A stretch of 64,000 bases of DNA, taken from positions 8,383 through 72,382 of the forward strand of contig LBWB01000007.1 of NCBI GenBank assembly GCA_000993405.1. Direction: 5' to 3'. Below the pieces are notes generated by a model. That model made no database searches. It saw nothing but the letters and a program-made list of their open reading frames with translations, and had not been told where the DNA came from. The translations under genes were made by a program, and so were the position numbers. This document shows positions 1,937 to 33,295 of this stretch, piece by piece (the first letter of the stretch is position 1; the number at the start of each line of letters is the position of its first letter). Source of the DNA: Candidatus Woesebacteria bacterium GW2011_GWB1_39_12. Lineage in GTDB: Bacteria; Patescibacteriota; Microgenomatia; UBA8517.

Positions 1937-1975
1937 AGAAAGTTTGGCAAAGAAAACGAGAGGAAGTGAGAGATT

Positions 1976-2245
1976 ATGAAATTTAATGAGAAAGTATGGG
2001 CAAACACGACCGCCGTGTTTGTAGGCGTAGTTTATCTTTTTTGTAGGTTTGCTATTGCACTTTTCCCCGGATTTAGTATGGCGGTTACAAGAAGTTGGTT
2101 CCATGGTTTTGATGTAGCCAGAATATGGACACCTCGCGCATTTTCAGAAAATTTTCTACTGGGATTTGTGACGGCAGTTGCCCTTTCATGGTTGGCAGGC
2201 TGGCTTTTTGCATGGCTATATAACTATTTTTCGGTAAAAAAGTGA
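1976..2245 (+). CDS. Small membrane protein (hypothetical)
   Basis: 89-aa ORF with two or three hydrophobic helices, sitting inside the copper-related gene cluster. Confidence 0.45.
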   Translation: MKFNEKVWANTTAVFVGVVYLFCRFAIALFPGFSMAVTRSWFHGFDVARIWTPRAFSENFLLGFVTAVALSWLAGWLFAWLYNYFSVKK

Positions 2246-2418
2246 CCAGAATTAAGATAGAAAAAGTACGCGATCCTGTTTGCGGGATGATAAAGCCCAA
2301 AAGTAAAATGAGGGCTATTTCTATTTATATGGGGAAAAAGTATTATTTTTGTACGGAAGGTGACAAGAGAATGTTTGATAGACATCCAGAACATTGGATT
2401 CCAAAAGGTGGTGAGTAA
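2242..2418 (+). CDS. TRASH/YHS-domain metal-binding peptide with a GTG start; absent from the ORF track because it is shorter than 60 aa
   Basis: My own translation gives VTRIKIEKVRDPVCGMIKPKSKMRAISIYMGKKYYFCTEGDKRMFDRHPEHWIPKGGE. The CGM...YYFC pattern is typical of the YHS/TRASH copper-handling domain. The GTG overlaps the upstream stop codon. Confidence 0.5.
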   Translation: MTRIKIEKVRDPVCGMIKPKSKMRAISIYMGKKYYFCTEGDKRMFDRHPEHWIPKGGE

Positions 2419-2419
2419 T

Positions 2420-2845
2420 ATGGATAAAACTTTAACTTACGCAATAATTGGGGGGTTGGTGGGTGTTGTCGCGACCCTTCTAATCACTAACTACTCAGTT
2501 AATAACAGGAATTACGGTATGATGAGAATGATGGGTATGGGAGGTGGAATAGAGACTATGATGCAGGGAGAGAAGTGCCCTATGATGAAAGAGGGAGAGA
2601 AAAATGAAAATATGGGAATGAGTATAAATGAAATGACAGGGAGTTTAATCGGAGTGCGCGGTGAGGAATTCGAAAAAGCTTTTATCGAGACAATGATTGC
2701 GCATCATCAGGGGGCAATTGACATGGCAAAGCTCATCCCGTCACGAACAGACAAGCCTGAATTAAATAAACTTGGTGAGGATATCATAAGCGCTCAGTCG
2801 AAAGAGATTGAGATGATGGAAGGTTGGATGGAGGACTGGTTCTAA
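2420..2845 (+). CDS. DUF305-family (metal-binding four-helix) protein; the track ORF starts at 2360 but the likely start is the ATG at 2420
   Basis: MDKTLTYAIIGG forms an N-terminal TM segment. The conserved HHQGAIDMA motif marks DUF305. A ggtggtgag Shine-Dalgarno-like sequence sits just 5' of the 2420 ATG. Confidence 0.55.
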   Translation: MDKTLTYAIIGGLVGVVATLLITNYSVNNRNYGMMRMMGMGGGIETMMQGEKCPMMKEGEKNENMGMSINEMTGSLIGVRGEEFEKAFIETMIAHHQGAIDMAKLIPSRTDKPELNKLGEDIISAQSKEIEMMEGWMEDWF

Positions 2846-2912
2846 AATGGGAATGGATAAGCAAAGCTTGGCCGAGTCAGACTCGGTAAGCAAAGCTTGG
2901 CCATAATAAATT

Positions 2913-3266
2913 ATGGATAAAATTTTAGTTACAACGGTTGGTATGGGATTAATTGGTTTTATCTGGTGGTTTTTCTTTGGAAAAAAAGAAAAAGCTATTG
3001 TTGCAGGTGATGTGTTGGAGATTCTTGTAGATGGGGGATATAAACCTGCCTTGATAAGGCTTAAGAAAGGTAAAAAGACAACCCTAAAAATTACACGGCG
3101 TGATCCTAACAGTTGTTTGGAAGAAATAATATTACCCGATTTTAAGATTAAAAAGTTTTTATCTCTTAACAAAGAAGTGGAAATATCTATTATTCCTCAA
3201 AAAACAGGTGAATTCGGATTTCACTGTGGAATGAATATGTATCATGGAAAAATCATTGTCGAATAA
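2913..3266 (+). CDS. Cupredoxin-like small protein
   Basis: An N-terminal TM segment is followed by a C-terminal ...[15 protein letters not shown], a candidate type-1 copper ligand set (H, C, H, M). It overlaps the start of copA. Confidence 0.5.
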
Positions 3267-5550
3267 TAAGTTTGTTAAGAAATCGTTTCCCATAGTTGGG
3301 ATGCACTGTGCTAGTTGTGCGAAGCTTATTGAAAGAAAACTTACGGGAACTCCAGGTGTTTTAAGCGCTTCCGTGAACTATGGCAGTGAGCAAGCCTCGG
3401 TTGATTTAGATCCAACGGTTACTGATGAGCAACTGGCAAAATCCGTTGAAGAGGCTGGATATAAAGCAATAATAGGGCAAAGCATAGAGGACAAAGGTCA
3501 GAGAACTCCGGAAGAAATAAAAGAGGAAGAGAAGAAGAAAGAACTTAAAAGTCTAAAGAATAAAGTCATATTATCATCCATACTTTCTGCCCTTGTATTC
3601 GTTGGAAGTTTTCCAGAGTGGTTTACTTTTGTACCCAGATTTTTAACCAATCCATATGCACTCCTTTTGTTGTCGACACCCGTACAATTTTGGGCTGGGT
3701 GGGGTTTTTATCAAGCAACTTGGTCTGGACTTCGGAATAGAACGGCCAGCATGGATACTTTAATTGCTATCGGAACCTCAGCGGCATTTGGTTATTCGTT
3801 AATATCCGTATTTTTTGGAGGACATATGTACTTTGATACAGCGGCCGTTATTATAACTTTAATTCTTCTGGGCAGATTTTTAGAAGCGAAAGCAAAAGCC
3901 CATACATCTGACGCTATAAAAAAGCTTCTGGGACTTCAAGCAAAAACTGCCCGTGTCAAGCGCGGTTCGAAAGAAATTGATATCCCAATAGAAGAAGTTG
4001 TAGTGGGGGATTTAATTCGAGTTAGACCGGGAGAGAAAGTTCCTACGGACGGTGTGATTGTGGAAGGCATAAGCTCAATTGACGAATCAATGGTAACTGG
4101 AGAATCTATTCCGGTTGATAAGAAAGCTGGAGACAATGTGATCGGTGCGACCATCAATAAATCCGGAAGCTTCATTTTTAAGGCTACTAAAATTGGGAAT
4201 GACACGATGCTTGCCCAAATTGTAAAAATGGTTGCTGAAGCCCAAAGTTCCCGTGCTCCCATTCAAAGATTGGTGGATGTAATCTCCTCGTATTTTGTAC
4301 CTGCAGTTTTAATGATGGCTGTCGCGACTTTTGTGATTTGGTATGTTATAACCCCGAGCGGAGTCGAGGGGATTTCTTATGCTCTTTCGAACATGATTGC
4401 AGTCCTTATTATCGCTTGTCCCTGTGCAATGGGGCTGGCAACTCCAACAGCCATTATGGTCGGGACCGGAAAAGGTGCAGAAAAAGGAATTTTGATTAAG
4501 GACGCAGAGGCACTTGAGACAGCAAATAAGGTAAAAACAATAATTTTTGACAAAACGGGAACATTAACAGAAGGGAAACCGAAGGTTACAGATGTGATTA
4601 AAGTGGACAGTGGACAGTGGACAGTGGACAGTGTTTTAAGGGTAGCTGCATCGTTGGAAAAGGGATCGGAACATGCTTTAGGTGAAGCCATTTTGAAAAA
4701 AGCTGAAGAGGAAAAGATAGTTTTCAAAAAGGTTGGAAGCTTTCAAGCAATTCCGGGGCACGGTATTGAAGGAAATATCGATGGAAAAAGATATTTTCTT
4801 GGAAATAGAGCCTTAATGGAAAAAGAAGGTGTGGAATATAAAAATTCAGAAAATCAGATCGCAAAATTAGAAGAAGAGGGGAAGACTGTCATGCTACTAG
4901 CCACTGTCAGTCATCCTGAACTTGTTTTAGGGTCTAAGATGCTGAAAAAGTTTCAGCATGACAAAGGAGTAGTATTAGGCATTATTGCTGTTGCTGATAC
5001 TCTTAAAATTGGAGTTGAGGAAGTGATTAAGCGATTAAGTGAGAAGGGAATTGAGGTTTGGATGATAACCGGGGATAACGAAAGGACGGCTAAAGCTATC
5101 TCAGAGGAGGCAGGAATTAAAAACGTCATGGCGGGAGTATTGCCGGATCAAAAAGCAGAGAAAGTTAAAGAATTTAAACACCGATCACTAACCATTGCTT
5201 TTGTTGGCGATGGAGTTAATGATGCACCTGCGTTGGCCGCGTCTGACGTCGGGATAGCAATGGGAACAGGAACTGACGTTGCAATTGAATCCGCTGGGAT
5301 AACTCTTCTTAATCGTGACATTCATTCGGTTTTAACGGCTTTGAATCTAAGCCGTGTGACGCTTTCCGTCATAAAGCAGAATCTTTTCTGGGCATTTGGT
5401 TATAATATTGTTTTGATTCCTGTAGCAATGGGAATTCTTTATCCCTTCTTTGGTTGGCTTCTTAATCCTGCTCTTGCTGCCTTCGCCATGGCCGCAAGTT
5501 CCATTTCGGTTGTTACAAACTCCCTGAGACTTAAAAAAGTTAAAATCTAA
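3244..5550 (+). CDS. copA: Copper-translocating P1B-type ATPase
   Basis: N-terminal HMA domain ([12 protein letters not shown]), membrane CPC motif ([11 protein letters not shown]), phosphorylation site FDKTGTLT and hinge [10 protein letters not shown]. Confidence 0.9.
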
Positions 5551-5559
5551 GATATAATA

Positions 5560-6048
5560 TTGGACATGAACTTTAATAGAATCATCAAACTGATTGTGGT
5601 TATAGTTCTGACTTTCGCAGCCGTGTTTATGGCCAGATCGGTAATAATTCAAAACGATCTGAAGGAGACTAAGAATTCTCCGAGTCAGGAAGCATCTGGG
5701 GAATCAAATTCAATCGTTCTAATTACTCCATCAAGTCAAAACTTGGGAAAGGTTATTTACGGCGATGTTGCCACCACCACGTTTACTTTGACGAATTCTA
5801 CGTCAAAAACCCTGAAGATTACCCGTGTTTCAACGTCATGTGGTTGTACAAAAGCTGAAGTTGAAAAGAAAGACTTGGGTGCCAATGAGATGACGGTAGT
5901 AAAGGTATCCTTTGATCCTGCCGTACACAAAGATGATACAGATATTGGGGAAGTAACTAGGTTTATCTATGTTGAGACTGATAATCCTGACTTTCCTCAA
6001 CTAACAAGTACTATAACCGCAAATGTCATCAAGGAAGCTTCACAGTAA
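5560..6048 (+). CDS. DUF1573 domain protein, N-terminally anchored
   Basis: N-terminal TM, then TSCGCTKAEV...VSFDPAVHKDD...IYVETDNP, typical of DUF1573. Paralogous to the fragment at 3..200. Confidence 0.6.
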   Translation: MDMNFNRIIKLIVVIVLTFAAVFMARSVIIQNDLKETKNSPSQEASGESNSIVLITPSSQNLGKVIYGDVATTTFTLTNSTSKTLKITRVSTSCGCTKAEVEKKDLGANEMTVVKVSFDPAVHKDDTDIGEVTRFIYVETDNPDFPQLTSTITANVIKEASQ

Positions 6049-6161
6049 ACTATCAAAAGACATGGTGGTGCAAAAAGATTAATTACCGGTAGTGGATTTA
6101 GATTACCGAGGGTATCTGGTGGTTGACTTGAAGCTATCCTTAACGGTATAGTGAAAACCGT

Positions 6162-6485
6162 ATGGCTACTCTTGATGTTAGCGATTCAGAATTTGAAGAA
6201 AAGGTTTTGAAATCACAGATTCCCGTCTTGGTAGACTTTTGGGCGGTTTGGTGCGGACCCTGCAAGATGGCTGAACCTGTTCTCAATGAACTTTCAGATG
6301 AATATAAGGACAAACTTGTTATAATGAAATTAAACGTTGACGAGAATCAAGGAAGCACGCTTAAATACCAAGTTATGTCGATTCCTACAACCATTCTTTT
6401 TAAAGGAAGTCAGGAAGTAGGACGTCAAATTGGTTTTGCAGGTAAAAATGCATATGAAGATTTAATCAAGAAGGGGGTGAATTAG
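6162..6485 (+). CDS. trxA: Thioredoxin
   Basis: 107 aa with the WCGPC active site and the thioredoxin fold motifs (VDFWA...PT). Confidence 0.9.
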   Translation: MATLDVSDSEFEEKVLKSQIPVLVDFWAVWCGPCKMAEPVLNELSDEYKDKLVIMKLNVDENQGSTLKYQVMSIPTTILFKGSQEVGRQIGFAGKNAYEDLIKKGVN

Positions 6486-6486
6486 G

Positions 6487-6861
6487 ATGGATCCAAATGA
6501 CACAAAAGTTAAAGGTTCAACTCCCGCAATGGGCACACCATTAGCATCGGATGATACGGGTATGGCGAGCGGTGGTGGACCTACGTCGACAACAGCGGAC
6601 GAACCCAAAATGCCAACGGGGATGCCAACAGGTGGTATGGGAATCAGTGTTCAACCTACGGACGAACCGGTAGCACCACTTCCTGGTGATCAACCTTCGG
6701 GAGGTATGGGTGGTTCAATGGGTGCAGAACCCGCTGAAGAAACACCGGAAACAACGTCTGAAAGTACTCCTTTAGGAGGTCTTCCTCCCACAAAAGAACC
6801 TGAAGAGGGTACTGGTACCGGGGTTCCGCCAGCAGGTGGAATGATGGGAGGAACAGTCTAA
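6487..6861 (+). CDS. Gly/Pro/Thr-rich low-complexity (probably disordered) protein
   Basis: 124-aa ORF that starts 2 nt after the trxA stop. It contains PTGMPTGGMG repeats, and the segment is locally GC-rich. Confidence 0.4.
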   Translation: MDPNDTKVKGSTPAMGTPLASDDTGMASGGGPTSTTADEPKMPTGMPTGGMGISVQPTDEPVAPLPGDQPSGGMGGSMGAEPAEETPETTSESTPLGGLPPTKEPEEGTGTGVPPAGGMMGGTV

Positions 6862-6923
6862 AGATATAGGACTTCATTTGTTTTAGAAATATATTTTTCT
6901 AAAGTTTTGTATGCTCGGAAAGT

Positions 6924-7892
6924 ATGACTGATAAAGACATATTTACGATCAAACCCAAAGAAGGTGAAGCTTGGGATGTGGTAATTATTGGGTCTGGTCC
7001 TGCAGCTTTGACTGCGGCGATATATACCACGCGTGGTGCTGCCTCTACACTAATTTTGGGAGGAGAGAGTTGGGGAGGACAGCTCATGCTGACTACAACG
7101 GTTGATAACTTTCCCGGTTTTCCAGATGGTATTCAAGGGCCTGACTTAATGAATTTGATGAGAAAGCAGGCTGAGCGTTTTGGGGCGGAGTTTGTACAAA
7201 AAAATGTGGAAACAGCGGACTTAGGTAAAAAACCCTTTGAATTAATTGCAGACGGAAAAAAATATTTATCTCGAACAGTAATAATTTCTACGGGAGCGAG
7301 CGATAAATGGCTTGCTATTCCGGGGGAGAAAGAGTTGGTAGGAAGAGGCGTTTCTACTTGTGCTCCATGCGATGCCCCGTTTTTTAAAAATAAAAAAGTA
7401 GCTGTCATTGGAGGTGGAGATTCTGCTTTAACTGAAGCGCTGGTTCTTACCAAATACGCAACCGAAGTTTTTATTATTCATAGAAGAGATCAATTTAGGG
7501 CTTCGGCCGCAATGCAGCAAAAAGTGCTAGATAATAAGAATATTAAGATTTTGTGGAATACTGAGGTTACTGAAATTGTCGGAAAAGACAAGGTAGAGAA
7601 GATACTTATCAAAAGTAATAAAGAGAATACTTCTGGAGAAATGGTTTTGGATGGAGTTTTTGTCGCTATCGGCCATGTTCCTGAAAGCAGGGTGTTCAAA
7701 GGACACATTGAACTTGATGAAAAGGGTTATATAAAAGTTAACGATCACACAAAGACAAACATAGAGGGAGTTTTTGTTGCGGGTGAAGTACATGATCAGC
7801 ATTATAAGCAGGCGATAACAACGGCGGGTTTTGGTTGTATGGCCGGAATGGACGTCCTACGTTACTTAGACAAAAGCGTTCCGAGTTGGTAA
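6924..7892 (+). CDS. trxB: Thioredoxin-disulfide reductase
   Basis: FAD-binding GSGPAALTAAIY, redox-active CAPC, and NADPH-binding GGGDSALTEA. Confidence 0.85.
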   Translation: MTDKDIFTIKPKEGEAWDVVIIGSGPAALTAAIYTTRGAASTLILGGESWGGQLMLTTTVDNFPGFPDGIQGPDLMNLMRKQAERFGAEFVQKNVETADLGKKPFELIADGKKYLSRTVIISTGASDKWLAIPGEKELVGRGVSTCAPCDAPFFKNKKVAVIGGGDSALTEALVLTKYATEVFIIHRRDQFRASAAMQQKVLDNKNIKILWNTEVTEIVGKDKVEKILIKSNKENTSGEMVLDGVFVAIGHVPESRVFKGHIELDEKGYIKVNDHTKTNIEGVFVAGEVHDQHYKQAITTAGFGCMAGMDVLRYLDKSVPSW

Positions 7893-7901
7893 AGGACGGG
7901 G

Positions 7902-8714
7902 TTGACATATTCATTTCTTTCTTGCAGAATAGCTGATATGGCAAAATTGAAAGGCGGACTTCTTGAAAAACTTGTTCCTGTTCTTCTTGTTGCTTCGATA
8001 GGATTAGCATTTGCTGTTGGTGTTTTGTGGCAGAAGGTAAGCCAGTTGGAAGGCGGGGGAACGAAGGTTCCAACGACAACTACTGGAGCTAATGATTCAG
8101 GTAATGCAGCGGCGCAGCCCCAAGCTGCTTCAAAACTCAGTAATTTGGAAGGTGTTGTTTCGACAATAGGAGTTGATGTAAATAAGTATAAATCTTGTGT
8201 TGAAGCCGGAAAATATAAAGATAGAGTAGAGAATGACTATCAAGGTGGAATACAAGCAGGCGTACAAGGAACTCCCGGAAGTTTTATAGTCAACAAAAAG
8301 GGTGAAGTTTGGTTTGTTGCAGGAGCATATCCATACGAGAGTGTCAAACAAGTTATTGATATGGCTTTAGGCAAGGGAACTGGAACACTTCCGCAAGGAG
8401 TAGAGAAATATTCCGCTGATAAGGCGGCAAAGCTTCCTAAACTAACTAGTAGCGATCATGTTCGTGGAGATAGGAATGCGGATGTTCTTTTGATCGAATA
8501 TTCAGACTTTCAATGTCCTTTCTGTCAGAGATTTCATCCGACTGCGCAACAAGCTTTGGACGAAAACAAGGAGGTTGCTTGGGTTTACCGCCATTTCCCG
8601 TTAGATCAACTTCATCCGCTTGCGCGCCCGGCTGCTTTGGCTTCAGAATGTGTAGCTGAAATTGGCGGGGATGAAGCTTTCTGGAAATTTGCAGATGAAG
8701 TATTTGGTAGTTAG
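7902..8714 (+). CDS. DsbA-family thiol:disulfide oxidoreductase, membrane-anchored; the likely start is the ATG near 7941
   Basis: N-terminal TM, CPFC active site (DFQCPFCQRFHP), and the FRHFPL motif of the DsbA fold. Confidence 0.7.
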   Translation: MTYSFLSCRIADMAKLKGGLLEKLVPVLLVASIGLAFAVGVLWQKVSQLEGGGTKVPTTTTGANDSGNAAAQPQAASKLSNLEGVVSTIGVDVNKYKSCVEAGKYKDRVENDYQGGIQAGVQGTPGSFIVNKKGEVWFVAGAYPYESVKQVIDMALGKGTGTLPQGVEKYSADKAAKLPKLTSSDHVRGDRNADVLLIEYSDFQCPFCQRFHPTAQQALDENKEVAWVYRHFPLDQLHPLARPAALASECVAEIGGDEAFWKFADEVFGS

Positions 8715-9235
8715 TTTAAAGATTCTAGAATCTTATAAGCAACAACCGCTGCTGAGCCCCAGACATTAAAGGATCGATTTACTCCAAACATCGGTAATTC
8801 TACAATTAGGTCCGCTTCGTCTAAAACTTTCTGGTCTATACCTTCTGTTTCGTTTCCGACAACTATGGCGCAAGGAAAATAAGGTTTGAGATTTGAGTAA
8901 GAGACAGAGAGGGAGGATTGTTCAACTGCGATGATTTGGATACCTTCTTTTTTAAGTTTTTTAGCTGTTTCTAAAGTTGATTCAGATTTTTCCCAAGGAA
9001 CCCAAGTTTCTGTTCCGACCGCCGCTTTGTGAATTCTTGACGAAGGGGGATATTCCATTTCTCCACATAAATACATTTTGGTAGCTGCAATAGCATCAGC
9101 CAGTCGGAAAAGTGAACCGATATTGTATGTATCGATAATTTGGTCGAGTACCAAATAAATCGGATTTCTTTTAATTTTTTTAAGCTCGTTTTGCGCGGGT
9201 ACAGACTTTCTTAATTGTTTCGCGTTTAATTTCAT
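8711..9235 (-). CDS. SpoU/TrmH-family RNA 2'-O-methyltransferase
   Basis: 174 aa with SPOUT motifs (NIGSLFRLADAIAA, IVVGNETEGI, LPMFGVNRSFNV). Confidence 0.7.
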   Translation of the reverse strand: MKLNAKQLRKSVPAQNELKKIKRNPIYLVLDQIIDTYNIGSLFRLADAIAATKMYLCGEMEYPPSSRIHKAAVGTETWVPWEKSESTLETAKKLKKEGIQIIAVEQSSLSVSYSNLKPYFPCAIVVGNETEGIDQKVLDEADLIVELPMFGVNRSFNVWGSAAVVAYKILESLN

Positions 9236-9256
9236 ATGAAGAGTTAATTAGTAGAG

Positions 9257-9329
9257 TGACCCCACCCGGATTCGAACCGGGGTTTACGGGATGAAAACCC
9301 GCCGTCCTAGGCCTCTAGACGATGGGGCC
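9257..9329 (-). tRNA. tRNA-Glu (anticodon TTC)
   Basis: Folded by hand on the minus strand: acceptor GGCCCCA/TGGGGTC, anticodon loop TTTTCAT, T-loop GGTTCGAATCC. Confidence 0.7.
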
Positions 9330-9386
9330 AAGTCTAACCTGACTCGCTTACAAATACGTCTTCATGCGAAGCCGCGTTTGACGCGG

Positions 9387-9458
9387 TGAGCCCGGAGCGG
9401 ATCGAACGCTCAACCATCACCTTAAAAGGGTGTTGCTCTACCATTGAGCTACGGGCCC
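9387..9458 (-). tRNA. tRNA-Lys (anticodon TTT)
   Basis: Minus-strand cloverleaf: acceptor GGGCCCG/CGGGCTC, D-arm GCTCAATGGTAGAGC, anticodon loop CTTTTAA, T-arm GTTCGATCC. Confidence 0.7.
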
Positions 9459-9754
9459 TCGTCGAAATAGACTACGCTTGCCGCAAACCGCGAACGCTTT
9501 TTGCTTAACGCTTCGTTATTTCTCCTCTCAAAATTTCTTCGAAATTTTGTGTGTTTTTTAAAGAAAGACAGTAGATATTATACAGCACCAAGCTCATATG
9601 GTAAAATATCAAAGCTAGATTTGCTTATTACGGAGTCGTCTGGCGCGAAGCGCAAAGGAAAGACTTTTAGTCTTGACGCCATGGTAAGCAAAGCTTGGCC
9701 ATTTGGAATACTAAATGGTAGGACTCCTGCGAAGCAGGAGTAAAACTATTACGT

Positions 9755-9826
9755 TGCGGAGTCGTCTAATGGTAGGACGTCACCCTTTGGAGGTGAATAT
9801 TCTTGGTTCGAATCCAAGCTCCGCAG
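9755..9826 (+). tRNA. tRNA-Gln (anticodon TTG)
   Basis: Acceptor TGCGGAG/CTCCGCA, anticodon stem TCACC/GGTGA with loop CTTTGGA, T-arm CTTGGTTCGAATCCAAG. Confidence 0.7.
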
Positions 9827-10048
9827 CTCTTCGACAAACTCAGTGCTTTAGCACTAAAGTTGTTGAAGTTATAACTGGGATGAGAAGTTTACCCTGAACA
9901 GAGTCAAGGAGAGTTCTCTTTCCGCAGCAAAACCAGAATGCTCCAGAAGTCTTAATACCCGAAAAAAATCTTAAGGCGTTGTCTCTGAATAAAATTGCCC
10001 TTGACATATATATAGTTATAGATCGATAATTGTCCTATAAGTGAAGTT

Positions 10049-11443
10049 ATGAATAATATAAAAATTTATTTCATCGCGTTACTTCCACTTTTATTGCTTC
10101 TCGCTTCGATTATCTTCCCCCAACCAGTATCAGCAGTGTTAGGTGTTGGGATAGGATCGTTTTATTTAGGAAGTTCAAATAAAACTGAGGGGTCTGGTCG
10201 CTGTGATGTTATGCACTTCAGGCCGGACGGGTGGCAATTATGGAATACTGTAACCACTCTTGGACCCTTGGAAACCAAGGGGTTTGGGAATATTCCTGAA
10301 CTGCCACTAAATCATTATAATAGCCAAATTGTTTGCACTAACGGGACAACCTCAATTATGGGTATTTGGCGAAATCCCACCCAAACTGCTATTGGAGCGT
10401 ACGGAGGTGATCAAGGAGCAATTAATGCCGCCTTTATTCCTGGATTGGTAAAAAATTATTATAATCAGACAAGTAGCGTTTTTGTTTCTGCAGAATTATG
10501 GGACTTGTCACTTCACATATCTTTTTACGATATAAACGGCACCAAAGTCGGTTCCACTTATTTTACAACCGTACCATTTTTAGGAATGGCAGAAATAGAT
10601 TTAAAGGATTACCCTTCTTTACCTGACGGGAGATATTCAGTTGGTATTGGAACGGATGGACTTGATCAATTATTCACAGCCACTGTAGTTACAAGGAATG
10701 TCAGCGGTCCCGATCGGGTAATCGCTTGGCGTGTAGATCCTCTGGGAGGATATAAACTTTACGCACCCAGTGTCAGAAAAAATTATTACGGATATAATTC
10801 CACGCTGGTAATAAATAATTGGACAGATAGCGCAGGATATGTAACTGTTTCTTTATTACCGGGTCCATATTTAGTAAGTTCAGGAAATTTAGCAGGTCAC
10901 GCTACACTTGCACTTAACAGTTCGAATTTTAATATACCGGATGGCGATTATACGGCTGTTGTCACTTCGTCGGGTGCAATGGTCGTTGGGATGAGCTCAA
11001 CTTTTCACTCTACGAATAATTCCCGTGGGGCATATGCTTTGGCATCCCCCACATTTACCTCAAAATACCGAGCATTACCAGCTTTATGGAATTATACCCC
11101 CAATAATGATCCCAGAATTTCATCAGTAAAATGCATGAATACTAGTCAAACCCAGGGAAAAATTAGGTTAACTATTCAGGGCGGGGCATATGCCGAATCA
11201 GGAGATTTGGGCGTTAACCAAGGGCAAGAGTTTGTATTACAGAATATCCCTCAATTTCCACTTCACACCATGTTTGCAGGCTTGGCCGAAAGTATGAGTG
11301 GTGGGACTATTGCTTGTGTAGCCACCTCCAACGTATCCGGCTCGAGTAATGATAGATTCTTCCAATATGAGAGCAATATCTCCAATAATGATAACAACCA
11401 GAATTACTCGTCAAAAATTCTGACTTTATACGACGACCAGTAG
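10049..11443 (+). CDS. Secreted hypothetical protein with an N-terminal signal peptide; N/S/T-rich
   Basis: 464-aa ORF with a hydrophobic signal (IYFIALLPLLLLLASIIFP) and many N-x-S/T sites. A TTGACA...TATAAG promoter-like sequence lies at about 10003-10040. Confidence 0.6.
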   Translation: MNNIKIYFIALLPLLLLLASIIFPQPVSAVLGVGIGSFYLGSSNKTEGSGRCDVMHFRPDGWQLWNTVTTLGPLETKGFGNIPELPLNHYNSQIVCTNGTTSIMGIWRNPTQTAIGAYGGDQGAINAAFIPGLVKNYYNQTSSVFVSAELWDLSLHISFYDINGTKVGSTYFTTVPFLGMAEIDLKDYPSLPDGRYSVGIGTDGLDQLFTATVVTRNVSGPDRVIAWRVDPLGGYKLYAPSVRKNYYGYNSTLVINNWTDSAGYVTVSLLPGPYLVSSGNLAGHATLALNSSNFNIPDGDYTAVVTSSGAMVVGMSSTFHSTNNSRGAYALASPTFTSKYRALPALWNYTPNNDPRISSVKCMNTSQTQGKIRLTIQGGAYAESGDLGVNQGQEFVLQNIPQFPLHTMFAGLAESMSGGTIACVATSNVSGSSNDRFFQYESNISNNDNNQNYSSKILTLYDDQ

Positions 11444-11581
11444 ATCTTAGTTAAGCAAAATGACATCCTCCCCGCTTTAAAATAAGACTGGGTTGTCGTC
11501 ATGAAGAATGTTCGAACCTGGTCCACAGTCCGCAGCCATTCGACTCATTTCATTCACTCATGGCCTTCGGCCCTATAGATA

Positions 11582-11908
11582 ATGTCGAGTGTCTCGAGCG
11601 TAGTCGAGAGAATTTTTCTGATGGAATATTTTCTTTACATTCTCCGAACTTCATCTGACACTCTTTACATTGGCCAAACAAATAATTTAGAAAAACGTCT
11701 AAAAGAACACCAAAGTAAATCCAATAAATCTGCAAAATATATCCGCTATTTTAACTCATTTAATTTAGTTTATTCGGAAAAATACTCAACCAGAAAAGAA
11801 GCAATGCAAAGAGAATGGCAGTTGAAAAAGTGGTCTAGAGAAAAGAAAGAACTATTAATACATGGAACTATAGTCCCAAGCCAAGTCGAGGGGAAAAATA
11901 AGAGTTGA
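11582..11908 (+). CDS. GIY-YIG nuclease-domain small protein (UPF0213/YhbQ-like)
   Basis: YFLYILRTSSDTLYIGQTNNLEKRLKEHQS matches the GIY-YIG motif. The likely start is the ATG near 11621. Confidence 0.65.
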   Translation: MSSVSSVVERIFLMEYFLYILRTSSDTLYIGQTNNLEKRLKEHQSKSNKSAKYIRYFNSFNLVYSEKYSTRKEAMQREWQLKKWSREKKELLIHGTIVPSQVEGKNKS

Positions 11909-12040
11909 TTAATGGTGATAAGATGCATTAAGGAAATCGTAGGTCCCGACCAACCTGCTCAGCATATGAAATACACAATGCATTTACCCGAAAGACCATT
12001 TTATGCAATTAAAAATGGGACTTAACAAGTTGAGGGACGG

Positions 12041-12316
12041 GTGCCGAAGTCCAAAAGGAGCCGATATTTTAAAATCAAATCCGGGGACGCTATCGTTTTT
12101 TTATTAGTGACGGGAAAAGAAAAAGTTTATACAATTGTCCAGTTTGTGCATCATTATCCTGATTTTAGAACAATGCTTCAAAAAGAAGGTCCTAAAAAAG
12201 TTTTATCCAGCGGAGGGAATATTGAGCAAGGTGTGGCAAGCTATAATTCTTTATCAGGATATAAAGAATTGGTTAAAAAATACGGTGTTTTTGCATTCGG
12301 AATTAAAGCGACGTGA
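12041..12316 (+). CDS. Hypothetical small protein
   Basis: 91-aa ORF with no recognisable motif. Confidence 0.35.
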   Translation: MPKSKRSRYFKIKSGDAIVFLLVTGKEKVYTIVQFVHHYPDFRTMLQKEGPKKVLSSGGNIEQGVASYNSLSGYKELVKKYGVFAFGIKAT

Positions 12317-12400
12317 GTAACCCCAAAGGAATGTTCTAAACCCGCTTGCTCAGCCATACGATTTACCGCTCACTTTGTGCTACACTTTTAGTGATTTTCC

Positions 12401-14129: not shown

Positions 14130-14473
14130 TATTGTATTGAGTCTTCATCAAAACCTCGGCCGTTTGTGGCATTTAGTTTAGTATTCTCTAGCTCAAGTTT
14201 GTGAACCATTTTGGTTAGTTCTGCATTTTCTGTCCTCAACTTTTTTAACCCCTTTTTCATATCAGACTCGGTTAGCCTTGCAGATAAATCGCGAGAGACA
14301 TAGATGATAAAAGAAGCTAATAGTCCGACGAGAAGGGGAGTAAGTACAACCAAATAAAGCGGTACGTCGGGAATATAAAATTGACCGAAGTTAAGAGTAA
14401 CGACGTTCGTGTTTTGTGTAGCAAAAATCGCAAATCCTAATCCGAGTATTACTGTAACGATTAGAGTTATCAT
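14129..14473 (-). CDS. LapA-domain (DUF1049) inner-membrane protein
   Basis: N-terminal TM pair with ...NTNVVTLNFGQFYIPDVPLYLVVL... and a C-terminal coiled-coil segment. Confidence 0.55.
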   Translation of the reverse strand: MITLIVTVILGLGFAIFATQNTNVVTLNFGQFYIPDVPLYLVVLTPLLVGLLASFIIYVSRDLSARLTESDMKKGLKKLRTENAELTKMVHKLELENTKLNATNGRGFDEDSIQ

Positions 14474-14518
14474 ATTTTAATAATAACATATGAAAAAAAT
14501 CGATGGAACTTTTTGCCA

Positions 14519-14547
14519 TTGACCCTCTTTACTTCTTTGGTATAATA
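14519..14547 (+). promoter_or_regulatory. Near-consensus sigma70-type promoter (TTGACC, roughly 17 bp spacer, TATAAT)
   Basis: ttgaccctctttacttctttggtataat. The intrinsic-terminator hairpin at 14603-14628 lies downstream. Confidence 0.45.
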
Positions 14548-14602
14548 CGAATGCACATATGGAAAATGGATAGAAACAGATGGTCAATTTCTCGTGCAAC
14601 CC

Positions 14603-14628
14603 ACCCATCTGGTGGGTTTTTTGATTCT
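14603..14628 (+). terminator. Rho-independent terminator-like hairpin (AACCCACC-loop-GGTGGGTTTTTT)
   Basis: aacccacccatctggtgggtttttt. A near-identical hairpin recurs at 17553-17582. Confidence 0.5.
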
Positions 14629-14742
14629 CATCAGGTTGAAGAGCACTTTAACCCCGAATAAAACTTAGCTCGAGCCACGAATTACATTTGTGCTCTCGAG
14701 ATGCGTTTATACGGGGTCTGCAGAGCTCAAATGCCTTGAATT

Positions 14743-14757
14743 TTCGCTCTTTGACAA
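14743..14757 (+). promoter_or_regulatory. boxA-like rRNA antitermination element
   Basis: gctctttgacaa against the boxA consensus GCTCTTTAACAA, about 100 nt upstream of the 16S 5' end. Confidence 0.5.
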
Positions 14758-15016
14758 TTGAAGATTAATTTAGGTTAATAAGCTAATAGCTTATTATTCA
14801 AAATATGGTTGGAAGCGAATCCCATTAATTGCGTAAGCTAATTAATTGGGAACTTTTTGAGGATTTGATCCTGGTCCAGGACGAACGCTAGCGACGTGCT
14901 TTAAGCATGCAAGTAGAGCGAGCCCGCAAGGGCAAGCTGCGAACGGCTGAGTAACACGTAGGAACCTACACTTTGGTGGGGTACAGCTCGCCGAAAGGCG
15001 GGGTAATACCGCATGA

Positions 15017-16398: not shown

Positions 16399-17278
16399 GA
16401 AATTAAAACGCGCGTGGCAGTCATATTTTCTAACAAGTTAAAATCTTGTCTTTGTTGGATAACTTTAATTGTCTAATGGAGTAGCCAAAAAAATATATAA
16501 GCAGTCCTAGTCGGGTAACTGACTAGGGTGGAGGGCTTGAGGCAAAGAACAGGGATAGAATACAAAAAGATAGACGACTTCTGTTGGGCGGTCAGAAGGA
16601 AGTCGTTTTTACAAATCTTACTATTCATGTTTGGAACAGAAAGTATGATGACCCATGGAGATCCTTACAGGATTGAGGTAATTGCCTGTAAGGAAGTCAG
16701 CTTTTCCATAATAGGTAATTGAGCAAGTCTGACTTGCTTGACATTTTCGGGTTATATTTGTAATCTGAAATTACAATTACTGAAGGGAAAAACGTAAATG
16801 TTATTAACTCCAGATTATATAGTTGGTCTTACTGAAGGGGAAGGATGTTTCTTAGTATGCTTGAGACGCGATAATCGGATTGAATTTCGATTTTTTATAG
16901 CTCAGGCAATAGGGAATAGACCTCTTCTTGAAGAAATTAAAAAGTTTTTCAAAGTTGGAAGTGTTTACCAAAAGTCTAATGTAAAGGGAAAGTTACCGGC
17001 ATATGTCTTTGAAATTTCGAAAAGAGATGACATATATAAAGTACTTATTCCATTTTTTCAAAAAAACAAATTGAAAGGCATTAAATCTAAGTCGTTTGCA
17101 GTTTTTGAAGAAATTGCAAAATTAGTTAAAGGTAGACAAGATAAACGTAAACTAACTTCTGAAGAACTGAACTACATAACCAACTTAAGATTTGGAATGA
17201 ATAAACATTACGGCTCGCTAAGTGCGGAAAAACCGCTCGCTTAGTGGGAACGCGCAATAGCCTTAATGAAGCGCAATC
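16399..17278 (+). mobile_element. Intron in 16S at the site equivalent to E. coli position 1397-1400, carrying a LAGLIDADG homing endonuclease gene; probably group I
   Basis: The conserved tgtacacaccgcc...cgtcaag is interrupted by about 880 nt that contain the 16798..17244 ORF. Boundaries are approximate. Confidence 0.65.
16798..17244 (+). CDS. LAGLIDADG-family homing endonuclease, intron-encoded
   Basis: LLTPDYIVGLTEGEGCFLV matches the LAGLIDADG motif. 148 aa, embedded in the 16S insertion. Confidence 0.75.
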   Translation: MLLTPDYIVGLTEGEGCFLVCLRRDNRIEFRFFIAQAIGNRPLLEEIKKFFKVGSVYQKSNVKGKLPAYVFEISKRDDIYKVLIPFFQKNKLKGIKSKSFAVFEEIAKLVKGRQDKRKLTSEELNYITNLRFGMNKHYGSLSAEKPLA

Positions 17279-17552
17279 CGTCAAGTTAGTGAAGTTGGGG
17301 GCACCCGAATCCCGGATGTTCCGGGGCAAGGTGAAACCAGCGACAAGAATTAAGTCGTAACAAGGTATCCGTTCTGGAAGGAGCGGATGGATCACCTCCT
17401 TTCTAAGGAGTGTGAACTCCGATTAAATCGGAGATTACCCCTCAGTTTTCAGGTCGCAGTTTGCTGATAAACTAAACTGGACTCGCGCCTTCTGCGATAG
17501 TGGGCGTTTCCGACCATATTTTGGAGGCCAACCTAAATTATAAATGTCATAA

Positions 17553-19540: not shown

Positions 19541-19865
19541 CTCCTATCGATATTCTCCGCTCTACGGCTGGAGTGAGGCCGACTTTCAAAATTGCTGAAA
19601 GCGGTGTAGAAGCAAATAAAGTTAAATAAGTTAATTAAGTTAACTAAGAGATTAAGTAATATTTAGATTTTTGTGCTCCTAATTAACCGATTAACAGATC
19701 ACTATTCTTGCTCGCAAAGCGAGTACTTACTCCCACAAAGCTTCCAGCAATAATTTGTTAATGTGCGACACCCTCCTTATCTTCGCACTTGGCTTTTCAA
19801 TACTATTCGTATACGCCTCCTGCCAAGATTGGTCGGAGGGTTGTGTACTATTTTTATTTATTAAG

Positions 19866-20244: not shown

Positions 20245-22497
20245 CTAATTTTCGTCTTCAATCTTGCCCTCAAATATTGTCCCTGAAGACTCATTTTGGG
20301 CAGGTTCGGAATCTGATTTCACTTTCTTGGCATATCTTTCCCTTGATACCCGGATAACTTTATCTTTATTCTGATTTCGGGAAACCGGAAGGGGAAGAGT
20401 ATTGGCCAAGAATGGCCTTGTCGTATGTCCATCTATTGTTAGTTTTAGCGCGATTTGGAAATTTTGCAAGTTCACCAGATCGTTTTGCGAGAACACCTCG
20501 GCAAACTCTTTAAAAATTACGTTTGCGTCTTCCGCCCCAACGGCAAAAGAAATTAAAGTTCCGGCATTTCCCAAAATTGCTTTTTGGACATATTCGGGAA
20601 TTTGTGCCATGTATTGGTTTGCTAAAGTTAACGCCAGGCCGAATTTTCTTGCCTCGGACAAAATTTTTATAAATGAATCGGTTGCAAAATTCTGAAATTC
20701 ATCAACATATAAATAAAAAGGGACCCGGGTCTCTTTGGGAATATCGACACGGTGCATTGATGCCAATTGAAACTTTGTAATAAGCATTGCACCAAGAAGA
20801 CTTGAGTTGTCTTCGCCAAGGCGACCTTGGGAAAGGTTTGCGATGAGAATTTTTTTGCCGTTAATTATTTCATCAATAGAAATGGTTGACTTGGGTGCGC
20901 CGATTATTCTGCGTATCAAAGGAGAAGTCACGAACTGTCCGACTTTATTTTGGATGGGAGCTATTGCTTCTTTTTGAAGGGCCATGGGCATTTTGTCGAA
21001 TTCTTCTTTCCAGAAATGAACTAGTGACGGATCGGTTAGTCTGGCAACGATTTTATTTCTGAAAGACTGGTTTGCAAGCATTTTTAAAACGTCTGCCAAA
21101 GTTGAATTGGGGATTTCGGTCAGCGTTAAAAATGAATTTCTTAAAATGTATTCCATTCGGGCAGACCAGACGTTTGCCCAGACTTTTGTAAATATACTCA
21201 TTAAACCCGAGGCGACGAGTTCTGCTTCCTCGCGATTTGTGACTTCCAGGGGATTTAAAACAATGGGGAAGTCACGGTCGGCCGGGTTAAAGTAAATGGT
21301 ATCGTTGATTCTTGAAGCCGGAATATAGTTTAAGATATCGTCGCAAAGGTCCCCATGCGGGTCAATTACGGCAACACCTCTGCCTTTTTTAAAGTCATCA
21401 ATTGCCATATTGGCAATCATTGTTGATTTACCGGTTCCCGTTTTTCCGACGGTCCAGATATGGCGAAGTCTGTCAGATTCTTTTATGCCGAAGATGCTTT
21501 CTTTATTTTTAAAAGGAGTCTTAGCAAAAAAATTGATTTTTCTTTTTTCCTCGTCAGTAAGCCCTTCAGAAACAGGGAGTTTTTCGGGGGGCTCTGTAAG
21601 AACCGATGTCCCCCAGGTAATTCCCGGAACTTTGATTTTTTCCGAAGGCAAATGCCATAAAGTTGCCAGCTCAATGATATTTAAAATTTGTTTATCGGAA
21701 ACACGCCTTGCCCTTAGAGCTTTAGTTTCCGAGGTTTTGTTAAAACGGTTAGGGGATTTGACAGAAAAAGAATTTGCATCTGATCTGGCAAAGACTCCGA
21801 AGGCGTCTGCAATACCTTTCAGGGTTTTATTTGTATTGCCGGCTATCCTTAAAGTAGTTCTGAAACCTGGGTAAGAAATTTTTTCTTTAATGATATTTGC
21901 GTCCGTCCTTTGGGAAAAAGTTCCATCGGCGTTTTTAGCACCTTTATCAGAGAAAACTTGTCCTTGGGTCTGCCAGTTGGGTGTTATTGACTCCAATGCG
22001 ATTTGGATGAGAACCACTTCATCCGGATCTCCTTTTGAAAGGACAGAAAGAATGGATGATAGAGGATCAACGTCCTGGAAATTAGAGTAAGTTTGGATGG
22101 AGTAAAAACTTCCCTTGGCAAGTTTTAGAAAAAACACTTTGATATCTTGATTCTCCAGAGGGCTCGCCTCGATTCGACCGAGTCGGAGCGGGCTCGCCTC
22201 GCTGAAGCTTTGGCGAAGCGGGTCTTCAATTTTTTCAATTATTACCAAAGGATAGTTTGAGCGGATCTGAGTCTCAATAAAAGATACTAATGACGCATGG
22301 CATGTAACAAGAAACCTGATTTGCTGGTTAACTAATGCAATCTCAAGAGCAAAAGCAGGTGGTTTTTTGCCGAGAAGTTTATCCAATGTTGATGCATAAT
22401 TAATTTGGGTTAAAGCGGCAAGAAATGTTTTTGCCGCCTCAGGAGTGACCTCGATATTTCGAGGTAGTTTAAGAGAAAGAGTTATTAATCCTTCCAC
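20245..22497 (-). CDS. TraD/VirD4-family (T4SS coupling-protein-like) P-loop ATPase; HerA/DUF87-like is the alternative
   Basis: Walker A TVGKTGTGKST, ...AVIDPHGD..., Walker B FYLYVDEFQNF, and ...LALTLANQYMAQ... as found in the conjugative coupling protein / T4SS-DNA-transfer domain. Confidence 0.55.
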   Translation of the reverse strand: MEGLITLSLKLPRNIEVTPEAAKTFLAALTQINYASTLDKLLGKKPPAFALEIALVNQQIRFLVTCHASLVSFIETQIRSNYPLVIIEKIEDPLRQSFSEASPLRLGRIEASPLENQDIKVFFLKLAKGSFYSIQTYSNFQDVDPLSSILSVLSKGDPDEVVLIQIALESITPNWQTQGQVFSDKGAKNADGTFSQRTDANIIKEKISYPGFRTTLRIAGNTNKTLKGIADAFGVFARSDANSFSVKSPNRFNKTSETKALRARRVSDKQILNIIELATLWHLPSEKIKVPGITWGTSVLTEPPEKLPVSEGLTDEEKRKINFFAKTPFKNKESIFGIKESDRLRHIWTVGKTGTGKSTMIANMAIDDFKKGRGVAVIDPHGDLCDDILNYIPASRINDTIYFNPADRDFPIVLNPLEVTNREEAELVASGLMSIFTKVWANVWSARMEYILRNSFLTLTEIPNSTLADVLKMLANQSFRNKIVARLTDPSLVHFWKEEFDKMPMALQKEAIAPIQNKVGQFVTSPLIRRIIGAPKSTISIDEIINGKKILIANLSQGRLGEDNSSLLGAMLITKFQLASMHRVDIPKETRVPFYLYVDEFQNFATDSFIKILSEARKFGLALTLANQYMAQIPEYVQKAILGNAGTLISFAVGAEDANVIFKEFAEVFSQNDLVNLQNFQIALKLTIDGHTTRPFLANTLPLPVSRNQNKDKVIRVSRERYAKKVKSDSEPAQNESSGTIFEGKIEDEN

Positions 22498-22559: not shown

Positions 22560-22922
22560 CTACCGCCGGAGAATTTCTGCTAGTTTATCAATAAAATCTT
22601 GTGTCTCTTTTGGGTGGGTATATATCCAGTAGGTGGCTGTACTCCCAACGCAGAGAAACGTAAGAAAAGCACTCACAGCAACTATGGCAGCCGATTTTCC
22701 TTCACCGGGTTCTGGTTGGTCTGGAATCACTTCTTTCGATATTTCTGTAGGGTCAAGTTCGTGCATAAAAAACTCGTAGTAAATTATAGGATTAATTGAG
22801 TTCGATGTCAAATTGTGGTAAATTAATCGTACTCGGGTGGTTAGTTCACCGGTTAGAACGCTTACCTGATGACAAACGAAGTTTGACATAACAAAAATTG
22901 CAAACGGGGGCACGTAGTTCAC
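22560..22922 (-). CDS. Possible small membrane protein; overlaps the tRNA-Ile fragment and gene
   Basis: 120-aa ORF with one TM. The overlap with tRNA sequence makes it doubtful. Confidence 0.25.
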   Translation of the reverse strand: MNYVPPFAIFVMSNFVCHQVSVLTGELTTRVRLIYHNLTSNSINPIIYYEFFMHELDPTEISKEVIPDQPEPGEGKSAAIVAVSAFLTFLCVGSTATYWIYTHPKETQDFIDKLAEILRR

Positions 22923-22979
22923 TGGTAGAACGCTTACCTGATAAGTAAGAAGTAGATAGTTCGATTCTATCCGTGCCCA
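22908..22979 (+). tRNA. tRNA-Ile (anticodon GAT) in the 16S-23S spacer
   Basis: Acceptor GGGCACG/CGTGCCC, anticodon stem CTTAC/GTAAG with loop CTGATAA, T-arm GATAGTTCGATTCTATC. Confidence 0.7.
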
Positions 22980-23195
22980 CTCAAAAGTAAGAGGTGTAAG
23001 GCTTGCCCTGAGCGAAGTCGAAGGGTTCGATTCCTTGCGCGCCCACAGAATGGATTTTTTACCTGTTGACGGAGTTCGATATTTTGTAATATAATTCCTT
23101 TTACCTTTTTAAGGCCGTTTACTTAATGAGAATCCGAAAATTAATATTAATCTATAACCCACAGGAATTCTGTGGCTAAATTAGGGAAAGATTAG

Positions 23196-23222
23196 GATCA
23201 TTAGGTAATCCCGCCTTAAAGC
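23196..23222 (+). terminator. Terminator-like hairpin between tRNA-Ile and tRNA-Ala
   Basis: aatcccgccttaaagcgggatttttt. Confidence 0.4.
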
Positions 23223-23283
23223 GGGATTTTTTATTGCACATTTGAAAATTAATATTAGGGAGATAGGGAAGATTAGGGATTAA

Positions 23284-27847: not shown

Positions 27848-27966
27848 GGTCTGGTGATGATAGCGGTGCGGAACTACCTGATCCCATTCCGAACTCAGTC
27901 GTCAAACACACCTGCGGCGACGATAGTAAGCGGGCAACTGTTTGCGAAAATAGCACGTCGCCAGGC
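27848..27966 (+). rRNA. rrf: 5S rRNA
   Basis: ggtctggtgatgatagcggtgcggaactacctgatcccattccgaactcagtcgtcaaacac...gcacgtcgccagg resembles bacterial 5S. Confidence 0.65.
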
Positions 27967-32500: not shown

Positions 32501-33295
32501 TTATTTTCAGTTTATCAGTTATCTGTTCAGCAGTTCAACAGTTATTCCCAACTTATCCACAAACTTTTTTCCTACCAAATAACTGGCGAAAGTTAGATTC
32601 GGAAATTTTTAGACTTAAACTATGGGAGGATATACTATATATAGTAGTTAGATTATAGGGTTTGACAGAGTTGACAGATGGTGTTAGACTAAATTTGTTT
32701 AAAAATCGCATGTTTTATTGCTCCCTTGCGGGACGGGTGGTGTGTAGGGCAGGCATACTACCCGTTCCTTGAGGGTTCAATCCATGCGATTTTTTTATGG
32801 GAAGACTTCTCGGGTGGCCCCGCACAGCTCTTATTTCTCGCCACGAACTACGTTTGTGCTCTCGAATTGCGAGTGTGCGGGGTAAATGTGTAGGCGAAGT
32901 CCCGCACAATCCTGTAAGGATCTGTGCGGGAGCAGGCATACTACCCGTTCCTTCAGGCTAGAAAAAGCTCGGCTCTTTTTTTATCGCACAAAAAAACCGA
33001 GTCTAACTCGGCTCCACTTGTCTCTAGGCCCTCCTAATTTTAGCACTCGGCTTTTCAATACTATTCGTATACGCCTCGTGCTGCAATTTTAGAAGGGCAG
33101 AGCAGGCAATAGACAAGTATTATCACTATCAGACTATTATCTTAGTTAAGTGTTTGTCAAGTGCCTCTTGTCGCCGAAAGTTTAATTTCTCATTCCTTGA
33201 AAATCCTATAAGAGGTTAAAATAAGCTTGTGTACGGAAACTTGACATGCTTATAACTCTCACATATAATTGGCTTCGAACTGCTCCCAAGTGTGA

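Follow-up and report, generated by a model that had tools for sequence, protein, structure and literature searches.

A putative co-transcribed hairpin repeat around the rRNA operon of a Woesebacteria genome, and a related structured module

The Candidate Phyla Radiation (CPR, Patescibacteria) comprises bacteria with tiny genomes and unusual, often split rRNA operons, in which, to our knowledge, almost no non-coding RNAs have been described. The question raised by the stretch considered here (64 kb of a Woesebacteria genome, hereafter the window) concerns the nature of a short sequence that occurs both in the leader of the 16S rRNA gene and in a non-coding region downstream of radA. An inspection of the letters alone (the sequence-only reading) had described it as an element of about 40 nt, conserved upstream of 16S and repeated within a seemingly unannotated structured RNA locus, and had proposed either a leader or antitermination RNA or a tiny conserved ORF. 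The repeated sequence is in fact the apex of a larger hairpin, designated type I, which has relatives in other Woesebacteria loci (cited below by their L numbers) and shares part of its sequence with a second module, designated type II.

The type I hairpin

The core of the repeat, GCCACGAAYTACRTTTGTGCTCTCGA, matches the window at two sites only (14674-14699 and 32840-32865; up to three mismatches, both strands) and none of 100 dinucleotide-preserving shuffles, for a chance expectation of 0, so that the repeat of about 40 nt can be considered real. Each copy is preceded, as had been noticed, by a hairpin and a run of T: at the first site the T-run ends at 14625, the type I hairpin begins at its base at 14652 and the core at 14674, while at the second site the corresponding positions are 32801, 32818 and 32840. 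Both copies fold, on the plus strand, into the same 65-nt imperfect hairpin (Table 1), whose apex corresponds to the repeated sequence; the full hairpins are identical at 48 of the 65 positions and a weaker similarity extends about 15 nt further upstream.

From a structural perspective, the first copy is made up of a base CCCCG/CGGGG, an internal loop CUUAG/AUGCG, a middle stem CUCGAG/CUCGAG, an inner stem CACGAAU/AUUUGUG and a triloop UAC. The base, the internal loops and the triloop are found in both copies, as is the 7-bp inner stem, which can be written CACGAAY/RUUUGUG. The folding z-score of each window copy is about -3, and the inner stem is lost on the minus strand because a G.U pair is present in both copies. 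Terminal inverted repeats are present as well, namely the base CCCCG...CGGGG and further complementary segments, although trivially so, as in any hairpin. The helix counts 24 pairs broken by internal loops and reaches, in length, what is expected of an RNase III substrate (about 20 bp or more); cleavage by RNase III can be put forward as a candidate activity. Two of the substitutions that distinguish the copies, T to C (14682/32848) and A to G (14686/32852), face each other in the stem as a single base pair, which passes from U-A to C-G; the change is therefore compensatory rather than a pattern of synonymous codons.

Table 1. Coordinates of the features discussed, in window positions unless another locus is named
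Feature	Position	Strand	Support or remark
Sigma-70-like promoter of the 16S leader (TTGACC, 16-nt spacer, TATAAT, with TG)	14519..14546	+	11/12 matches
Conserved leader hairpin and U-tract AACCCACCCAUCUGGUGGGUUUUUU	14598..14625	+	Compensatory changes in L008, L011, L014, L016, L020
BoxA-like remnant GAGCACTTTAAC, left insertion edge (GCACTTT at 14643-14649)	14641..14652	+	Alignment to L011 leader AAAGCACTTTGACAATTGAAG
Type I hairpin, copy 1	14652..14716	+	82.6 bits, type I covariance model
BoxA GCTCTTTGACAATTGAAG, right insertion edge (GCTCTTT at 14746-14752)	14746..14763	+	Homologous boxA in L011, L008, L020
5' strand of the 16S processing stem	14799..14814	+	16 contiguous pairs with 17508-17523, downstream of the true 16S 3' end
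Type II module downstream of the T4SS coupling-protein gene	19762..19848	-	73.9 bits
Promoter-like site of locus 2 (TTGACA, 17-nt spacer, TAGACT, with TG)	32662..32690	+	100% conserved in L002, recognisable in L033
Hairpin 1 and U7, sRNA-like/terminator-like	32701..32801	+	Conserved in L002; expanded form in L033
Type I hairpin, copy 2	32818..32882	+	86.7 bits, type I covariance model
Hairpin 3 (GUCCCGCACAAUCC UGUAA GGAUCUGUGCGGGA), preceded by GGCGAA	32897..32931	+	97% conserved in L002
Direct repeat GCAGGCATACTACCCGTTCCTT, second copy	32932..32957	+	First copy (32749-32774) is the 3' arm of hairpin 1
Convergent small-RNA gene: promoter 33160-33133, type II module 33105-33020, terminator CCGAGTTAGACTCGGTTTTTTT 33014-32990	33160..32990	-	Module 87.6 bits
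Type I copy	L002 11845-11917		
Type I copies	L011 9369-9441, 12525-12597, 9791-9862		
Type I copy	L047 1514-1586		
Type I copy	L016 244-315		
Type I short form, directly upstream of tRNA-Ala	L011 8324-8362		

Genomic setting of the two copies

The 16S gene starts at 14853, and its leader is organized in the order promoter, hairpin with U-tract, GAGCACTTTAAC, hairpin repeat, 29-nt tail, boxA and 5' strand of the processing stem. Promoters are found at the equivalent position in the L011 and L008 leaders. The boxA located between promoter and 16S fits GCTCTTTAACAA, which we take to be the established consensus of bacterial rrn operons, and it is the neighbour of the hairpin, not the hairpin itself. 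The two strands CAAAAUAUGGUUGGAA (14799-14814) and UUCCGACCAUAUUUUG (17508-17523) likely form the RNase III processing stem of 16S; the hairpin repeat lies upstream of this stem and therefore within the discarded part of the leader. The true 3' end of 16S, GGATCACCTCCTTTCT, is at about 17403, while the Rfam 16S hit stops at 16470; an insertion of about 900 nt near this end carries an ORF for a LAGLIDADG endonuclease (16798-17244; Pfam E = 4e-17).

In L011 and L008 the boxA comes directly after the U-tract, about 10 nt downstream. Compared with these leaders, that of the window has 103-115 extra nt, flanked by GCACTTT and GCTCTTT, an imperfect 7-nt duplication around a 103-nt insertion. The same slot between U-tract and boxA is filled by other inserts, unrelated or related, in L014, L016 and L020; in L014 the layout is a boxA-like sequence, a type II module and boxA. 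The type I hairpin is absent from six distinct 16S leaders of other Woesebacteria (L008/L009/L015, L011/L012, L014, L016 and L020), and the covariance model R1 gave no copy beside a 16S leader in about 100 loci, the window species excepted. Scans for the 16S leader of a relative of the L002 type reached at most 72% identity among the matches listed in metagenomes and peaked at 72% in the genome collection. Within the species the leader does not vary: 10 further independent assemblies match it at 100% over 407 nt, and no presence/absence polymorphism of the insertion was seen among them. On the basis of these alignments, the 16S-leader copy is a lineage-specific insertion in a variable slot between the leader hairpin/U-tract and boxA. 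The proposal of a leader RNA element has thus been retained in part: the element is structured, belongs to the plus strand of the 16S leader and adjoins boxA, but to call it conserved upstream of 16S is misleading. Likewise, the idea that absence of conservation in related genomes would refute the element has received a divided answer, since its position is not conserved while the hairpin family is. A role of the hairpin as a second (P2) promoter was rejected, its hexamers being poor and the promoter scan having returned nothing.

Downstream of 16S, the operon is split by a gene encoding a T4SS coupling-protein-like ATPase (TrwB/TraG-D/DUF87; 20245-22497, minus strand), located between 16S and tRNA-Ile; this split is conserved in many Woesebacteria (L002, L007, L008 and L011). 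The rest of the operon consists of tRNA-Ile, tRNA-Ala, a 4-kb 23S gene with a group I intron, and 5S. 5S is followed by genes encoding S1, a beta-helix protein and RadA; beyond them are the non-coding region named locus 2 and then genes encoding an fn3-like protein, sortase and Rho. Three proteins of the window (RadA, the coupling-protein homologue and a NUDIX protein) agree in assigning it to the Woesebacteria, and the NUDIX protein is identical to one from Ca. Woesebacteria bacterium GW2011_GWC1_43_10b. Several small duplications accompany the RNA genes. After tRNA-Ile its 5' half is partially duplicated (22854-22870 = 22926-22942) and fragments resembling a tRNA 3' half follow (22985-23050), while several tandem tRNA 3'-half repeats are found in L011 (9230-9600); these fragments look like scars of repeated integration events. 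Moreover, the 3' end of 5S shows an exact 28-nt duplication (27951-27978 = 28117-28144) about 165 nt downstream of the gene.

Locus 2 covers about 1.2 kb of non-coding DNA (32084-33295) after radA. The description of its 32.56-33.29 kb part as an unannotated structured-RNA locus has held up: the region 32695-33020 folds far better than shuffled sequence (z = -8.25) and the locus has no Rfam match. The direct repeat reported there has also been recovered, a few bases off the positions first given to it, as two 26-nt copies with 96% identity. The promoter-like site is followed by hairpin 1, which carries the motifs GGGACGGGUGG, GUAGGGCAGGC and CUACCCGUUCC and is closed by the stem AAAAAUCGCAUG/CAUGCGAUUUUU; the type I hairpin, hairpin 3 and the second copy of the 3' arm belong to the part that would be transcribed by read-through past hairpin 1. 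A small-RNA gene on the opposite strand, ending in a strong terminator, converges on this region, and L002 keeps its promoter, its module (12046-12131, minus strand) and its terminator. A promoter with 12/12 matches (33241-33269) is located directly 5' of the downstream protein gene.

The comparison with L002, a syntenic relative with a RadA identity of 71%, shows that most 30-nt blocks of locus 2 are 80-100% identical, which exceeds the nucleotide identity of about 75% in the neighbouring radA. The least conserved segment of the locus is the type I hairpin, with 60% versus 80-100% in its flanks; its positional homologue in L002 (87.9 bits) has the same base and a diverged apex. In L033, the region downstream of radA in the L011 genome, the promoter and hairpin 1 are kept and the type I hairpin is missing. 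No recognisable boxA is found beside the locus-2 type I copy.

Further observations concern the same region. The segment 32697-32801 (plus strand), right after the conserved promoter, resembles an sRNA of about 100 nt. Hairpin 1 has one 5' arm and two 3' arms in the window, so that alternative pairings are possible, and both of its arms are duplicated in L033. Two motifs of locus 2, GGCGAAGUCCCGC and CGGCUUUU, resemble CR-I and CR-V of RNase P RNA; this identity was rejected, as P1, P2 and P4 could not be mapped, the 5' and 3' ends do not pair and not even a weak Rfam hit was obtained. In the left part of the locus, a minus-strand ORF of 59 aa (32136-32315) aligns with the C-terminal part of PF05635, the 23S rRNA intervening-sequence protein (E = 9e-6, short of the curated cut-off), and appears to be a gene fragment. 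A 17-nt reverse match between 16659-16675 and 32907-32923 (E about 0.004-0.012) was judged to be possibly due to chance.

The type I family and the type II module

Pattern and covariance-model searches over about 660 kb of Woesebacteria loci gave eight long copies of type I in four related genomes, besides the short form of L011 (Table 1). The covariance model finds just two copies in the 64-kb window, but six or more within about 35 kb of L011. Among the eight long copies, 87% of the cells that should pair do so, versus 69% in shuffles and 33-48% when the partners are slid, both sides have changed in 16 of the 24 pairs, and the triloop is UAC in seven copies. On this alignment, the helix is kept by compensatory change, although covariation in a palindromic DNA repeat can equally persist at the DNA level or through copying between repeats. 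In the sense orientation G.U pairs outnumber A.C mismatches (12 vs 6), a weak bias. According to our own reading of the flanking genes, eight of nine copies run along the local transcription, the L011 copy at 9369-9441 being antisense to the rRNA operon.

The copies resemble one another in a patchwork manner. The two window copies share a species-specific apex (76% identical), while each of their apices shares only 47% with that of L002; this last apex is 85% identical to that of the L011 copy at 9369, which occupies a different site in a more distant genome. At the 5' base, conversely, the copy of the window rRNA operon is closest to L002 (88%). Such mosaic similarity fits repeats copied or recombined among sites, rather than a single vertically inherited element. 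A flanking duplication like GCACTTT/GCTCTTT was not seen at locus 2, nor at the sites of L002, L011 or L047.

The type II module shares with type I the sequence of the base and of the middle stem and differs in its apex. It is characterized by the core CGAGCCGUAUACGAAUAGUAUUGAAAAGGCGAG, by near-invariant loops (GAAUAG and UGAAAAG) and by tandem G.A pairs between two stems. In 18 distinct copies, 95% of the cells are paired and both sides change in all 14 modelled pairs, figures obtained on an alignment fitted to the model and hence biased towards structure. Copies are known from the window and from L002, L007, L008, L011, L014 and L016, and the module recurs within a unit made up of a hairpin with U-run, a boxA-like sequence and the module itself. 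It occupies the Ile-Ala spacers of L002, L008 and L011, the 16S leader of L014, the positions after 16S and after 5S in L011, and the DNA downstream of the coupling-protein gene in the window, L011 and L007. In this last position a promoter (20028-20000) and a hairpin with U-run (19900-19872) precede the module on the minus strand of the window, and the boxA-like sequence GCACATTAACAAATT (19766-19752) overlaps its 3' end. Together with the stand-alone small-RNA gene of locus 2, the type II module can be regarded as a candidate structured RNA and, although a by-product of this analysis, as a more interesting one than type I.

Two features of these units deserve mention on their own account. On the minus strand, GCUUUAGAGG (19966-19957), upstream of the hairpin with U-run, is perfectly complementary to CCUCUAAAGC (19893-19884), which runs from the 3' end of that hairpin's 5' arm across the loop into the start of the 3' arm; L011 and L007 have this arrangement too, and the complementarity suggests a pseudoknot or an antiterminator. 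Furthermore, a terminator-like hairpin with U-run is followed within about 10 nt by a boxA-like sequence at several places, namely 14598-14625, 23209-23250 and 19900-19752 (minus strand) in the window, as well as in L002, L008, L011 and L014. In the usual antitermination layout the order is the opposite, with boxA ahead of the terminator.

Neither type I nor type II matches an Rfam family. A scan of the window with Rfam 15 at gathering thresholds gave only rRNAs, tRNAs and the group I intron, and permissive searches (E up to 10) of 14400-14900, 32400-33400 and L011 12700-13450 gave chance-level hits only, such as a snoRNA, a miRNA and a Phe leader (21 bits vs a cut-off of 55); in the regions proposed at the outset for an Rfam check (covered as 14400-14900 and 32400-33400), no known family accounts for the element. 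Other identities were also discarded: ARAGORN found no tmRNA; SRP, 6S, K-turn and hammerhead RNAs were judged by eye to have motifs that do not match type II; and, as to a phage or viral origin, a scan of viral contigs for the type I core gave no match, while for type II a single contig carried a 19-nt core without the structure, which was attributed to chance. Literature searches on structured RNAs or MITEs of the CPR yielded nothing relevant, and no palindromic repeats of this sort were found described for CPR genomes. From these searches and alignments, the type I hairpins constitute a small, previously undescribed family of one subclade of Woesebacteria (CPR), with members in the leaders and spacers of rRNA operons and in a handful of further leaders.

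Possible role, rival explanations and likeness to known systems

Somewhat probably, type I is a co-transcribed hairpin repeat with a structural role at the RNA level. The element bearing GCCACGAAYTACRTTTGTGCTCTCGA is the apical half of an imperfect hairpin of roughly 65 nt, and members of the family, most of them sense-oriented, lie in non-coding DNA around the rRNA operon or in a few further leaders, where they are presumably transcribed from the upstream promoters. New copies would arise by duplication or insertion and would exchange segments by recombination or gene conversion, which would account for the mosaic similarity as well as for sites that are filled in one genome and empty at the equivalent place in another; selection would keep the helix because the copies would be co-transcribed. 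In the precursor the hairpin would act as a double-stranded module, either a site of RNase III-type cleavage or anchoring, or a boxA-accessory ('boxB-like') hairpin. We infer an RNA-level function of this kind (processing or boxA-accessory), and the hairpin is probably not a sequence-specific regulator. Two sets of data pull in different directions. The association of the family at large with boxA and with all junctions of the rRNA operon speaks for a processing or antitermination-accessory role, while the differences in presence between genomes, together with the antisense copy, favour a largely neutral or selfish repeat; presence and absence at equivalent sites also argue against an essential role.

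Should the repeat be purely selfish, that is, a miniature palindromic DNA element of the MITE/REP type whose hairpin serves its own mobilisation, no RNA role would be needed. The varying presence at equivalent sites of related genomes, the imperfect duplication at the 16S site, the mosaic copies, the occurrence of both orientations and the break of a same-species assembly (L001, ending at window position 32821) 4 nt into the repeat would all agree with this. However, the flanking duplication was seen at that site alone, no transposase is linked to the copies, only two of them occur in 64 kb, eight of nine lie on the sense strand, the conserved apical triloop and internal-loop motifs would be superfluous for terminal inverted repeats, and the insertion is fixed and invariant in the 10 further assemblies; on balance we regard this explanation as unlikely. 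Distinctly unlikely, in our view, is a dedicated boxB-like antitermination hairpin, which would bind a factor acting with NusB/NusE-boxA and whose locus-2 copy would control the surface-protein, sortase and rho genes. The 16S copy does lie 29 nt upstream of boxA and just past a boxA-like remnant, the L014 leader has an equal layout with type II in the slot, and the loop nucleotides are conserved, but most 16S leaders of the clade work without the hairpin, no recognisable boxA follows the locus-2 copy, the promoter with 12/12 matches directly precedes the downstream gene and one copy is antisense to the rRNA operon.

The palindrome might instead act as double-stranded DNA, as an inverted-repeat operator through which a transcription factor co-regulates the rRNA operon and locus 2. 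Its presence in two promoter-proximal regions and a symmetry kept by compensatory changes are compatible with this, yet its location, some 100-125 nt downstream of the -10 hexamers, is not that of an operator, its 65 nt with asymmetric internal loops and G.U pairs are unlike an operator, and members of the family occur at many non-promoter sites, so that we consider an operator highly improbable. A tiny conserved peptide, finally, had been suggested by the sequence-only reading on the grounds that three of the four internal substitutions would be synonymous or conservative in one frame (ATNY[IV]CALE[ML]R); two of the four, however, are the compensated base pair described above. In the copy of the 16S leader, this frame is interrupted by a TAA (14659-14661) five codons before the core, and none of ATG, GTG and TTG is found ahead of the core. 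Moreover, the homologues differ by indels and would yield unrelated peptides, their substitutions follow the pairing of the stem and have no codon periodicity, and a 55-aa ORF in the second region (32726-32893) has no Pfam match; the peptide is hardly conceivable, and this option has been dropped.

Among known systems, type I appears to work most like the Correia, ERIC and BOX repeats and the boxB/boxC hairpins of rrn operons. In the boxB-boxA-boxC leaders of E. coli a hairpin is likewise found between the promoter and the processing stem, adjoining a canonical boxA, and type II, the related module, is found repeatedly next to boxA-like sequences, in a leader and in the spacer upstream of 23S. 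Unlike boxB, type I is much larger (65 nt with internal loops), its position is not conserved in close relatives, one of its copies (locus 2) has no recognisable boxA beside it and another is antisense. The Correia elements of Neisseria, the ERIC elements of enterobacteria, the BOX/RUP elements of pneumococci and the REP/BIME elements are likewise intergenic imperfect palindromes of 65-90 nt, modular or mosaic, present in several copies per genome, variable in their presence among relatives and able to fold into stable hairpins within mRNA; the Correia elements among them are substrates of RNase III. In contrast to them, type I has a very low copy number, is concentrated around the rRNA operon, lacks a consistent target-site duplication, is biased to the sense strand and has a conserved apical loop, in a CPR host with a genome of about 1 Mb. 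The intervening sequences of rRNA and the RNase III stems are also extended helices of rRNA precursors removed on maturation; the type I hairpin differs from them in lying outside both the mature rRNA and the 16S processing stem, and its cleavage is only presumed. By the criteria for membership, type I is part of none of the described families.

A more far-reaching explanation, which we hold to be quite unlikely, is that types I and II are recognition modules for a CPR-specific factor acting at boxA leaders and at all the junctions of the split operon (the 16S leader, after 16S, the Ile-Ala spacer and after 5S), the small RNA of locus 2 being a decoy or titrator in trans; if true, it would represent a previously unknown layer of RNA-based control over rRNA processing or antitermination in Patescibacteria. 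Returning to the co-transcribed hairpin repeat, covarying modules at rRNA junctions would offer a handle on how rRNA is processed and transcribed when a protein gene separates 16S and 23S, and types I and II also bear on whether small palindromic repeats spread in streamlined genomes. There is, moreover, a practical side, as the type I repeat breaks metagenome assemblies (the contig L001 being the example from the same species) and the neighbouring rRNA genes yield chimeric contigs, so that care is needed in binning such regions. L005 (JGI Ga0209727_1001053) is an assembly chimera of this sort with its junction inside 23S: over positions 1-6073 it agrees with L002 at 99.95% identity, and over 5878-12397 with the window at 99.6%. 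A different case is that of L004, from the same species as the window, in which 167 extra nt (9524-9690) are found within 16S relative to window position 16114/16115, a difference that is a strain-level insertion polymorphism.
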